The translations under genes were made by a program, and so were the position numbers. 64,000 nucleotides of DNA, taken from the sequence record MK373782.1; one strand, 5' to 3'. The notes beneath the pieces were generated by a model. It saw only the letters and a program-made list of their open reading frames with translations, made no database searches and was not told the DNA's origin. Below are positions 34,616 through 41,246 of the stretch, piece after piece (position 1 is the stretch's first letter; each line of letters begins with the position of its first letter). Source of the DNA: Escherichia phage vB_EcoM_KAW3E185.

Positions 34616-35110
34616 TTAGAAATATTTTTTGTATGAATTGATTACATTTTGGTCTACATCATTATCAATTTGTGCAACAAGATAAGAACTGATTTCAACT
34701 TCTTGTGGGGCTGCTTGAACCAAATCAGAGTTCAAATACTCACGAATCCATGGAATAGGATGACGAGTTGATACGTCTTTAAGAGGACATGGCAGACCAC
34801 AACTACGCATACGAGACACGGTAAGATAATCCACAAATTCACTTAGGATTTTAACATTTAGACCTGGAAGAGCACCATCTTTAAACAAGTGTTCAGCCCA
34901 TTCTTTTTCTTGAGCGTTAACTTCCATGAAAATATCAACTGCTTCTTGTTCACACTCTTGAGCAATTTTGACCCATTCATCGCCGTCTTCGCCATCTTGT
35001 AAAGCACGAATAATATATTGAGTGCCCTTGAGGTGGAGCTGTTCATCACGAGCAATGAACTTCATAATCTTGGCATTACCTTCCATGATTTCCATATTCT
35101 TATGGAAGTT
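34616..35110 (-). CDS. nrdB: Ribonucleotide reductase beta subunit NrdB, exon 2 (upstream boundary approximate)
   Basis: R2 motif MEGNAKIMKFIARDEQLHLKGTQ; frame stays open upstream of the first ATG to about 35146, so the 5' end is a splice junction rather than a start codon. Confidence 0.7.
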   Translation of the reverse strand, partial: NFHKNMEIMEGNAKIMKFIARDEQLHLKGTQYIIRALQDGEDGDEWVKIAQECEQEAVDIFMEVNAQEKEWAEHLFKDGALPGLNVKILSEFVDYLTVSRMRSCGLPCPLKDVSTRHPIPWIREYLNSDLVQAAPQEVEISSYLVAQIDNDVDQNVINSYKKYF

Positions 35111-36214
35111 AAAGGTACCGTTATGTTCGATTGAGCTCGCTAATTCTCAACCCGTTCTCTTATGAACTGCTACATATTACTATGCAGACCAGACTATATC
35201 ACAATCCCAGAGGGATTCTCCCCATTTCGAGTCGCTTGACCCTACGTCCGAAGACTAGTCGTTGAACCTTGCTTTGCAATTGTCGCCGTGCCATCGTTTA
35301 TATGTTGATGGTGATAAATCTTTCTTATCACAATATGGACAATTCAATTGAATTCTATTTGGATTTAATTTACATCTGTCATTATGTTTTAGATAAAATC
35401 CAGGACCTTTACCAATGTGACCGCAGAAATCACATGTGATTTCTTTTTGTGCAGGATGGGTCCCGTTCTTAACCATTTCTAATGTTTTTGCTGATGTTCT
35501 TTTCTTATGGTCTTCTGACAAGAAATGATGTGAACCGTCATTTACCCGTTTTGATTGAGTTTCTGACTGCATTTTACCACCGCAAAATACATGAGTACCT
35601 TCTTTTATAGCTGCAATATTGCGTTCTTTAACTTTTGCAATATGCTCAGCTTGTTGAAAATTATGTATACCTAATGCAACTCTATTTAAATTAGATTTAC
35701 GCTGTATTTCACCGTCTAAAAGATGAAATGTACCATTTTCTATCTTAGATTTAATAGAGGCAATATTTTTAGCTCGTACTTCAGGGATATTAAAAATCTG
35801 GATTTCTCTAGATTTTGCGGCTTTAGAAGCTAATTCAGAAATTTCTTCAGGAGAATATTTCATTCTAAGCTTTATAGCATGACAAGCCTGGTAATCTTTT
35901 TGAGCTAAATGTATATCATAATGTTCCTGTATAGAAAGGCACATCAAATTATCTAAATCATTATTTTCACGGTTACCGTCTTTATGATGGATTTCGTATG
36001 TTCTTCCATCAGAATCTTTAGGTATAGGTCCGTTAGCATCTATCCAAATTTTTCTATAGTTCAATTGTGCATCCTCTTAAAAGTATAATCATATTTATAT
36101 TATACTAATTAAAGGTGCAAGCAAAACCTTGGCTGCTAGTTTTCCTATAAAGGACTTTCCAGCAATTAAAGGAGTTTTCGATAAACGTTACCGTTTAAAG
36201 GCGCATTTTACGCA
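35111..36214 (-). mobile_element. Group I self-splicing intron in nrdB with embedded HNH endonuclease ORF (boundaries ±30 nt)
   Basis: About 1.1 kb interrupts the NrdB reading frame between …RFYVSFA and …MEGNAK; contains a free-standing HNH ORF. Confidence 0.6.
35255..36064 (-). CDS. Intron-encoded HNH homing endonuclease (I-TevIII-like, intact)
   Basis: 269 aa with HNH motif YEIHHKDGNRENN and C-terminal Cys-rich zinc finger. Confidence 0.8.
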   Translation of the reverse strand: MNYRKIWIDANGPIPKDSDGRTYEIHHKDGNRENNDLDNLMCLSIQEHYDIHLAQKDYQACHAIKLRMKYSPEEISELASKAAKSREIQIFNIPEVRAKNIASIKSKIENGTFHLLDGEIQRKSNLNRVALGIHNFQQAEHIAKVKERNIAAIKEGTHVFCGGKMQSETQSKRVNDGSHHFLSEDHKKRTSAKTLEMVKNGTHPAQKEITCDFCGHIGKGPGFYLKHNDRCKLNPNRIQLNCPYCDKKDLSPSTYKRWHGDNCKARFND

Positions 36215-36885
36215 AAAGATACATAAAAACGAATAGCTTCTAAGGCATTAATAACGTGTAAACAGAGGTAAAGAGACTTCATTAAAGCACGTTTAGCTTC
36301 GGCTTCTTGTTTAATAGCTCGGTTTAAACGAAAGTCGGCATCAGGAGATTCTTTAGCTAGTTCTACAAATTCTTTAGCGTTTTCCCAATAACGAGCTTTA
36401 ACCAGAACATCATCATAATATCGTCCGATAGATTCGGCACGCTTCATAATAGCTTCATCTAATACAATCTCATCAAACACCTTCGATGGATCTGTATAAA
36501 GATTTCGCATAATATGAGTATATGAACGAGAGTGAATAGTTTCACTGAAAGTCCATGTAGCAACCCATGTATCTAATGAAGGGTCTGAAAGCAATGACAT
36601 AAGTACCGCAGATGGTGCTCTACCTTGGATAGAATCTAATAATGATTGATACTTAAGGTTGTTGGTAAAGATGTCCTGTTGGAACTGTGGAAGCTTATTA
36701 AACTGGGCCGAATCCAACATCAAGTTTACCTCTTCGGGGCGCCAGAAAAAACTGATCTGCCGCTCAATGAGTTCTTCAAATACTCGATGTCGTTGAATAT
36801 CATATCGAGCTAAACCTAATCCAGAACCAAAGAACATCGGTTCATTCAAAACATCGACTTGTTGTGTGTTAAAAACTGTACTCAT
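36215..36885 (-). CDS. nrdB: Ribonucleotide reductase beta subunit NrdB, exon 1 (3' boundary approximate)
   Basis: N-terminal R2 sequence ending …EAIRFYVSFA, then in-frame stop inside the intron. Confidence 0.7.
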
Positions 36886-37580
36886 TTAGAATCCTTAAAT
36901 TTACATTTATCATAATGCCATCTTAAAGCATTGCCTTTATTAACTTTCTTACCACAGTGCGGGCAAGGTGGATACTCAGTCCTTTGTTTAGTCTTCAAAG
37001 AAATTAAATCACGCGTTTCTTTGCTATGAGGAACATCTCTTGTAGGAGAAATTGTACCATACATAGGGTTAAGCACACCAACTTTAGCAGAAGATATGTT
37101 CTTTTTAGCTTCCTCTGATTTGGGCTTTCTCATCTTTTTCTTAGTTTCTTCGCTTTTAGCCCTTCCTTTGGTTGCCGCCGATATTTTGTGTTTGGTTTCT
37201 TCTGTTAAACGCAGACCTGTTTTCGCTTTTGATATTTTCAGTCTCGTTTCTTCAGAAATGACCGTACCTTTGCGAAATTGTGAATTTAACTTCTTTGCAT
37301 GGGCATATATTTTAGAATGAACTTTATAATGACGTTTCTTAGTTCCTTTCATATTGCACATCATGAAAAATGCGAATATAACAGATTTTACCGGATAAAT
37401 CTTTGATAAAATAGCATGCGCTATAAAATGTTCTCTAGCTGTTAATTCAACTAAATTTTCCTTATCATCAGTACCTCCCATACATCTAGGTAAGATATGA
37501 TGATTCTCTTTATACCCTGATAAAGGTTCCCGAGCCTGAGCTCGGGAAATTAGGTCGTTATAGATTTTTTGATAATTCAT
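36882..37580 (-). CDS. mobE: HNH homing endonuclease (MobE-like) between nrdA and nrdB
   Basis: HNH motif ENHHILPRCMGGTDDKENLV; C-terminal CPHC zinc finger; T4 mobE position. Confidence 0.75.
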   Translation of the reverse strand: MNYQKIYNDLISRAQAREPLSGYKENHHILPRCMGGTDDKENLVELTAREHFIAHAILSKIYPVKSVIFAFFMMCNMKGTKKRHYKVHSKIYAHAKKLNSQFRKGTVISEETRLKISKAKTGLRLTEETKHKISAATKGRAKSEETKKKMRKPKSEEAKKNISSAKVGVLNPMYGTISPTRDVPHSKETRDLISLKTKQRTEYPPCPHCGKKVNKGNALRWHYDKCKFKDSK

Positions 37581-40385: not shown

Positions 40386-41246
40386 TTATACCGCCATTTT
40401 AGCTTTGATAGTTGGATGAGATTCGTAATTTTTAAGAACGAAATCAGAATGTGTCATCGTTCCAGTAACCCAGTCCACTTGGATTTTTGTAGGCCAATTC
40501 TCAAAATTACTAGGCCAATTAATTTCAAGAGAACACAACTCTTTAGGTTCACGACGAAGAACTTCTTTGCATTGTTCTACATGATTGCTGTAGATATGCG
40601 TATTGCCGCCTGAGAACACTAAATCACCTGGGATAAGGTTACACATCTTCGCTACAATATGCGTCAAGGCAGCGTACGAGGCAATGTTGAACGGCAGGCC
40701 CAAGAAAACATCTACACTGCGTTGATACCATTGTAAATCAAGATGCCCATTACGCACATTAAATTGATAGAACATATGACAAGGAGGAAGAGCCATTTGG
40801 TCAATTTCGGCTGGGTTCCATGCAGAAACTATTTGACGACGATCATTAGGAAGAGCTTTAATACGGTCGATAGTTTTGACCAATTGGTCTACACCACCAA
40901 AATCACGCCATTGCTTACCATAAATAGGACCAAGTTCGCCGCTATGATATCCAAGGTCTTTTGCCTGATTTTCATAGTTGTCGTCCCAAATAGTTTTACC
41001 TTGAATAAGACTACCATGAGTACGAATACGCAAATCATTAACATTGGTAGAACCAGACATGAACCACAGTAACTCGGCAATACAAGCTTTCCATGCTAAT
41101 TTCTTAGTTGTTACTGCAGGGAATCCTTTAGTCAGATCCCAACGTAATTTAGTTCCGAACAGGGCAATAGTGCCGGTACCTGTACGGTCGTCTGTTTCGT
41201 AGCCATTTTCTAGGATATCATTAATCAGGTATTGGTATTGTTTCAT
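40386..41246 (-). CDS. td: Thymidylate synthase (uninterrupted, no intron)
   Basis: 286-aa continuous ORF with catalytic PPCH motif (MALPPCHMFYQF); T4 td is split by an intron, this one is not. Confidence 0.95.
   Translation of the reverse strand: MKQYQYLINDILENGYETDDRTGTGTIALFGTKLRWDLTKGFPAVTTKKLAWKACIAELLWFMSGSTNVNDLRIRTHGSLIQGKTIWDDNYENQAKDLGYHSGELGPIYGKQWRDFGGVDQLVKTIDRIKALPNDRRQIVSAWNPAEIDQMALPPCHMFYQFNVRNGHLDLQWYQRSVDVFLGLPFNIASYAALTHIVAKMCNLIPGDLVFSGGNTHIYSNHVEQCKEVLRREPKELCSLEINWPSNFENWPTKIQVDWVTGTMTHSDFVLKNYESHPTIKAKMAV

Follow-up and report, generated by a model that had tools for sequence, protein, structure and literature searches.

We analysed a 64,000-nt stretch of the genome of Escherichia phage vB_EcoM_KAW3E185 (sequence record MK373782.1), hereafter the window, and computed sequence identity, exact boundaries, the core match and the intactness of motifs for its nrdB locus. 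In this phage nrdB lies on the minus strand and consists of two exons split by one 1091-nt insert. The features of the region are as follows:

34616..35118, minus strand: nrdB exon 2, 503 nt including the stop codon
35119..36209, minus strand: nrdB intron (group I), 1091 nt, last nucleotide G at 35119
35255..36064, minus strand: I-TevIII homing endonuclease gene, 269 codons, TTG start, in the P6a loop
36069..36118, minus strand: 50-nt hairpin upstream of I-TevIII, fold of -14.9 kcal/mol, z=-3.2
36210..36885, minus strand: nrdB exon 1, 676 nt, from the open reading frame list and the alignment with the intron-less nrdB of phage JK1
36882..37580, minus strand: mobE-type free-standing HNH endonuclease gene, 232 aa, between nrdA and nrdB
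40386..41246, minus strand: td (thymidylate synthase), uninterrupted 286-aa ORF

The upstream NrdB ORF (36885..36208, minus strand) encodes the N-terminal 225 residues of the class Ia ribonucleotide reductase beta subunit and ends in ...EAIRFYVSFA, followed by TAA (36210-36208). The downstream ORF (35095..34616, minus strand) encodes the C-terminal part, carrying ...MEIMEGNAKIMKF.... An earlier note on this DNA had described a frame break after ...EAIRFYVSFA and a resumption about 1.1 kb further on, which agrees with the position of the TAA and the length of the insert; its intron coordinates, 35111-36214, gave the right location, but the ends were off by 8 and 5 nt from the true 35119..36209. 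Both boundaries were fixed with zero positional ambiguity by alignment with the intron-less nrdB of JK1. In the multiple alignment JK1 reads ...GCGT/GTACC..., while the window reads ...GCGT/AAAATGCG......ACATAACG/GTACC... (slashes mark the boundaries), and because the flanking bases differ, the boundaries cannot slide. At the junction, the exons joined in silico read ...TTTGCGT/GTACCTTT....

A junction query in which the last 200 nt of exon 1 (up to 36210) were joined to the first 200 nt of exon 2 (from 35118) gave one ungapped 400-nt match to nrdB of many phages, including JK1, NBG2, ECML-134 and HP3. Removal of the intron (36209..35119) produces an in-frame NrdB of 392 aa (Pfam Ribonuc_red_sm, 123.8 bits), collinear with intron-less homologues, with the protein junction ...FYVSFA-C-TFNFHKNMEIMEGN and a Cys codon split as T/GT. 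Exon 2 starts 10 codons upstream of EIMEGN, and the ten conserved codons at the junction (C-TFNFHKNME) are absent from both separate NrdB ORFs.

In many deposited Tequatrovirus genomes this locus is given as two NrdB CDSs and a 'hypothetical protein' or 'homing endonuclease', with neither an intron nor a joined CDS. Automatic gene calling would give the same two-fragment error in this window.

On its predicted core, the nrdB insert is a group I intron of subgroup IA type with P7.1/P7.2. At the Rfam gathering threshold, the whole 64-kb window gave zero matches, and so did the T4 locus, in which the td and nrdB introns are both ORF-bearing. The intron of the window was missed because the 810-nt ORF sits inside P6a; as the ORF-bearing introns of T4 were missed as well, this represents a known blind spot and not evidence against the core. 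When the window was scanned locally by E-value, the Rfam family Intron_gpI (RF00028) scored 33.9 bits (E=2.6e-6) versus a cut-off of 50. In this match the 3' half was correctly aligned (R element, P7, the P7.1/P7.2 insertion, P3', P8, S element, P9), and the 5' half was misplaced, inside the ORF. The ORF-less nrdB intron of phage vB_vPM_PD112, located at 1703-2006 of its record and identical to the window at 304/304 shared positions, reached 68.6 bits (E=7e-16), above the same cut-off of 50.

After removal of positions 142-926, which hold all of the ORF but its last 29 nt, the minimum free energy (MFE) fold of the window intron recovered P1 with its U.G pair, P3, P4, P5, P6, P6a, P7.1, P7.2, P8, P9, P9.1 and P9.2. 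P7 (GACUA/UAGUC), both strands of which lie within the conserved R and S elements, is absent from the nested fold because it crosses P3. The earlier note had taken the insert for a group I intron and had suggested an Rfam scan, P1-P9 folding and comparison with the T4 and RB3 introns; the core was indeed recovered in the ORF-less derivative as well as in the ORF-deleted fold. Its elements were placed as follows:

36121..36205, minus strand: 5' core half, from the Rfam alignment of the identical PD112 sequence and the MFE fold
36205-36201, minus strand: P1 3' strand/IGS UGCGC
36196-36183, minus strand: P2 (GUAA loop)
36174-36169, minus strand: P3 5'
36164-36159, minus strand: P4 5'
36154-36143, minus strand: P5
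36139-36134, minus strand: P4 3'
36133-36131, minus strand: P6 5' GCC
36127-36121, minus strand: P6a 5'
35119..35277, minus strand: 3' core half, from Rfam alignments and the MFE fold
35277-35271, minus strand: P6a 3'
35268-35266, minus strand: P6 3' GGU
35260-35256, minus strand: P7 5' GACUA
35255-35246, minus strand: P7.1
35242-35229, minus strand: P7.2
35223-35218, minus strand: P3 3'
35216-35204, minus strand: P8
35196-35192, minus strand: P7 3' UAGUC
35187-35170, minus strand: P9 (GUAA loop)
35167-35154, minus strand: P9.1
35150-35131, minus strand: P9.2
35119, minus strand: terminal G

In the MFE fold, exon GCGU together with A1 (GCGUA) pairs with intron UGCGC to form P1, which places U(-1) opposite G6. 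Exon 1 thus ends in ...GCGU with the U of the P1 U.G pair, and the intron ends in ...AUAACG. P1 is short (4-5 bp), and P10 amounts by eye to at most 2 bp. The same fold pairs P3 as CUCCUU/GGGGAG, P4 as UGCUGG/CUAGCA, P6 as GCC/GGU and P6a, which encloses the ORF, as GUUUUGC/GCAAAGC. P7.1 (GUC-UUCG-GAC) and P7.2 (GGGUC-AAGC-GACUC) are situated between P7 and P3' (the 3' strand of P3), where the Rfam alignments show them as an insertion. P2 (AAACG-GUAA-CGUUU) is our own assignment, backed by the Rfam alignment.

All intron copies in the family are at least 98.8% identical, and the only variation informative for the structure came from the comparison with T4. The 598-nt nrdB intron of T4 has the same insertion site and ribozyme core as that of the window, with 591 of 598 aligned bases identical. 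It lacks 491 nt of the proximal half of the ORF and two further single bases; the 3' part of the ORF is common to both introns. Two substitutions fall inside the ORF and five in the 3' core. Among the latter, one is located in the P8 loop, one is unpaired just 5' of P9 and three are in P9, where an A-U pair became G-C by a change on both sides (compensatory) and a G.U became G-C. All five are compatible with the predicted structure, being either unpaired or with pairing kept. For the T4 nrdB intron, Gott et al. 1986 and Sjoberg et al. 1986 reportedly showed that it splices itself in vitro in a GTP-dependent manner or that the exons are found ligated in vivo. From the sequence identity, we infer that the nrdB intron copy studied here is self-splicing too.

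The ORF within P6a (36064..35255) corresponds to full-length I-TevIII. It holds YEIHHKDGNRENN and the Cys-rich C-terminus, in line with the earlier note, which had reported an intact HNH endonuclease of 269 aa; the word 'free-standing' used there does not apply, as I-TevIII is intron-encoded and not free-standing in the sense of the field. Its last codons and UAG stop overlap P6a 3', P6 3' and P7 5'. Residues 4-48 matched Pfam HNH_3 with 48.7 bits (cut-off 24.8), and two zinc fingers of the form CX2CX12-13HX3C, found by a regular expression, begin at residues 211 and 242.

The nrdB intron of RB3 (Eddy & Gold 1991, GenBank X59078; PMC1865063) has the same insertion site and the same length of 1091 nt. 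Its I-TevIII likewise comprises 269 codons, with the HNH residues and the two zinc fingers alike; the window protein is 268/269 identical to it in both X59078 and KM606994, and the TTG start is common to the window and both RB3 records. Mutagenesis has shown the HNH residues and both zinc fingers to be essential (PMC1865063), and H26A, H27A, N39A and H48A each abolish cleavage by the RB3 enzyme (Robbins et al. 2007, PMC1865063). H26, H27, N39, H48, C211, C214, C242 and C245 are all kept in the window. RB3 I-TevIII acts as a dimer, cleaves and promotes homing, and homing of the RB3 intron amounts to 4.3% per recipient, >40-fold over that of the T4 intron (PMC1865063). The suggestion of the earlier note that the endonuclease may be active is therefore well founded, given the identity to an active enzyme and the retention of its essential residues. 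As for T4, the note had spoken of a truncated nrdB intron endonuclease, and T4 I-TevIII is in fact annotated as a defective deletion derivative, whereas that of the window is full-length.

Between the HNH domain and the zinc fingers, residues 96-208 of I-TevIII (window 35441-35779) consist of five repeats in tandem, which are about 22 residues long and all end in G-[TSI]-[HF] (NGTFHLL, LGIHNFQ, EGTHVFC, DGSHHFL and NGTHPAQ). The minimal DNA-binding fragment 166C of Robbins et al. includes some of this region. A match of residues 74-114 to Pfam FlgM (26.2 bits, cut-off 25) was probably a chance resemblance to the first G-[TSI]-[HF] repeat, and a FlgM/anti-sigma function was rejected.

Upstream of I-TevIII, the 50-nt hairpin pairs the Shine-Dalgarno sequence AAGAGGA (36078-36072) with CCUUU, and its loop holds the T4 late-promoter-like TATAAATA (36099-36092), which we take to be the T4 late-promoter consensus. 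In the published scheme, intron middle and late promoters drive expression of the endonuclease, while an RNA hairpin blocks translation of read-through transcripts (PMC2988022). Hairpin and late-promoter control of I-TevIII in the present phage would fit this scheme. The first 13 nt of exon 2 (GTACCTTTAACTT, 35106-35118) belong to the homing site and agree by eye at 10/13 positions with a segment just upstream of the late promoter, intron positions 92-104 (GCACCTTTAATTA, 36118-36106). This likeness fits the putative I-TevIII operator proposed in PMC2988022.

By megablast, the insert matched 128 phage records, 84 of which covered at least 80% of it. It is 99.9-100% identical to the introns of RB3, RB5-10, JK45, vb_GEC_SH_GT, phiD1, fPS-2 and others, and where the ORF is named in the matching records, it is called I-TevIII or 'intron-associated endonuclease 3'. 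Compared with RB3, the intron is identical at 1090/1091 positions, as opposed to 85.4% in exon 1 and 77.1% in exon 2. Conservation is thus much higher in the intron than in nrdB, the gene that hosts it, which is the mark of an element that has recently spread horizontally. Shigella phage JK45 (1091/1091) and Shigella phage vb_GEC_SH_GT have a 100% identical intron. JK45, with exons 96-99% identical to those of the window, is the closest overall relative of the nrdB region and has the same combination of a present nrdB intron and an absent td intron; unlike the window, it lacks mobE between nrdA and nrdB.

Close to the intron, over about 150 nt on its upstream side and 50 nt on its downstream side, exon identity to RB3 rises to 98%. 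Co-conversion tracts beside the intron were nevertheless not demonstrable, since the intron-less JK1 is equally conserved there (94-100%). The conservation of the flanks is therefore put down to constraint on this part of NrdB, as is usual for homing sites, and not to co-conversion.

The ORF has been lost altogether in the 304-nt nrdB intron of phages vB_vPM_PD112 and CE1, which occupies the same insertion site. Positions 142-926 are missing from it, that is, the whole ORF except its last 29 nt, as well as 2 nt in the promoter region. In PD112 the deletion is bounded by two copies of a 7-nt direct repeat, ACAATTG, of which the first is at the start of I-TevIII and the second 29 nt before its stop. 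The ORF deletion of PD112 is independent of that in T4.

The sole intron difference from RB3, at intron position 212 (window 35998; T here, G in RB3), is also the sole protein difference: residue 23, three residues from the catalytic H26, is Tyr in the window and Asp in RB3. A 61-nt probe around codon 23 was covered over at least 80% of its length in 77 phage records. The Y23 allele of the window was found in 67 records at 99% identity or more, a few of these being only partial matches, and was matched exactly in most of the 77. Exact full-length matches to D23 were restricted to the near-identical records of RB3, RB5, RB6, RB7, RB9 and RB10, and the T4 remnant also has T at position 212. D23 thus looks like a substitution of the RB3 lineage. 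Among the sequences of solved structures, I-TevIII had nothing better than a chance match (E=0.29), which gave no guidance on residue 23. One could go further and speculate, although we find it rather doubtful, that Tyr23 is ancestral and Asp23 a lineage-specific hypomorphic change, so that the common Y23 allele would be a considerably better homing endonuclease.

The gene immediately upstream of nrdB overlaps the nrdA stop and the nrdB start and encodes a zinc-finger ORF with a Pfam NUMOD3 match and a weak HNH match. Its residues 1-121 align with T4 MobE (93% identity) and its residues 150-232 with T4 NrdB.1 (92%), so that it is, judging by these alignments, an intact T4-type MobE. In the T4 reference, which also carries mobE between nrdA and nrdB, two extra single bases (in an A-run and at GAAAC/CTAAG) break the gene up into two, mobE with 141 aa and nrdB.1 with 83 aa. 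The window mobE is of the T4 and not of the RB3 type; only the first ~105 residues of RB3 MobE are common with it (60%). A mobE endonuclease of phage Aeh1 is mentioned in PMC2988022.

The C-terminal zinc finger of the window MobE (residues 206-230, 36891-36965, CPHCGKKVNKGNALRWHYDKC) resembles the second finger of I-TevIII (residues 242-269, 35258-35341, CPYCDKKDLSPSTYKRWHGDNC), with 46% identity over 28 residues (E=0.001). Two different nrdB-targeting HNH endonucleases thus have a DNA-binding module in common.

The td product matched Pfam Thymidylat_synt over the full-length profile with 325.5 bits. In a tblastn comparison with T4, its residues 1-183 and 184-286 align 1017 nt apart, and in the T4 annotation td is joined from two pieces around I-TevI. 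As the td ORF is continuous here and split by 1017 nt in T4, the td intron is absent from this phage. The earlier note had given td (40386-41246) as one continuous 286-aa ORF, had named an I-TevI intron in T4 td, and had concluded that the intron complement differs from that of T4; all of this stands. The third T4 intron host gene, nrdD, should lie outside the window, judging from T4 synteny. Reports that intron complements vary among T-even phages go back to 1987-1989 (Pedersen-Lane & Belfort 1987; Quirk et al. 1989; both cited in PMC2988022).

Taken together, the element is almost certainly the full-length form, that of RB3 type, of the group I intron that T-even phages have in nrdB, with an intact I-TevIII in its P6a loop. 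For splicing, expression control, cleavage and homing, the following model draws on the experiments with T4 and RB3. According to the model, the intron RNA would fold into the P1-P9 ribozyme and excise itself from the nrdB pre-mRNA, with the 5' splice site after the exon U paired to intron G6 and the 3' splice site after the terminal G at 35119. Ligation of the exons would restore the Cys codon (T/GT) and the 392-aa class Ia ribonucleotide reductase beta subunit. In read-through pre-mRNA, the hairpin would sequester the ribosome-binding site of I-TevIII; initiation at the late promoter in the hairpin loop would give transcripts devoid of the 5' arm, in which the ribosome-binding site is freed. 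Finally, double-strand-break repair would copy the intron into the recipient.

Alternatively, the intron copy might be functionally decayed, impaired in splicing or with an inactive endonuclease, and hitch-hiking, for example on MobE-driven gene conversion. A mobE-type gene indeed lies immediately upstream of nrdB, and MobE mobilises the defunct T4 nrdB intron in trans (PMC2790892); moreover, residue 23 of I-TevIII differs from the RB3 enzyme that was tested. However, the ribozyme parts are 100% identical to those of RB3 and of the ORF-less PD112 intron, and also to copies in many viable phages, the ORF is of full length with every mutationally defined essential residue kept, and Y23 itself is the exact match in most of the probe-covering records, all of which makes decay very improbable.

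As for a gene split by a free-standing endonuclease cassette, with two NrdB fragments translated separately and then assembled in place of RNA splicing, it would agree with the two NrdB CDSs and endonuclease given by automatic annotations of related phages and with an in-frame ATG at 35095 in the downstream ORF, but it is excluded for practical purposes by the complete group I core, boundaries that have the canonical nucleotides (U preceding the 5' splice site, G preceding the 3' splice site) and split a conserved Cys codon, and the ten conserved codons that both fragments would lose; the T4 and RB3 records, too, annotate nrdB as a joined CDS. Such a split gene, with fragments translated separately and assembling, is reportedly found in nrdA of Aeromonas phage Aeh1.

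We thus regard the locus as an RB3-type intron with an intact I-TevIII. The intron, I-TevIII, the mechanism of homing and the uneven occurrence of introns in T-even phages are already known from work of 1987-2007, and the configuration of the window is a textbook case (Eddy & Gold 1991; Robbins et al. 2007) with little new biology. On the practical side, the correct joined nrdB CDS was obtained, in place of the two NrdB fragments given erroneously in many related GenBank records, and a default Rfam scan overlooks ORF-bearing group I introns. A minor new point is that the biochemically characterised I-TevIII, that of RB3, represents the minority D23 allele. In the published picture, I-TevIII is a weak and labile enzyme with a Kd of about 0.8 uM and a specific activity 3-4 orders of magnitude below that of I-TevI, and no homing was detected in 1991. 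If Tyr23 were ancestral, as considered above, this picture would be that of a crippled allele.
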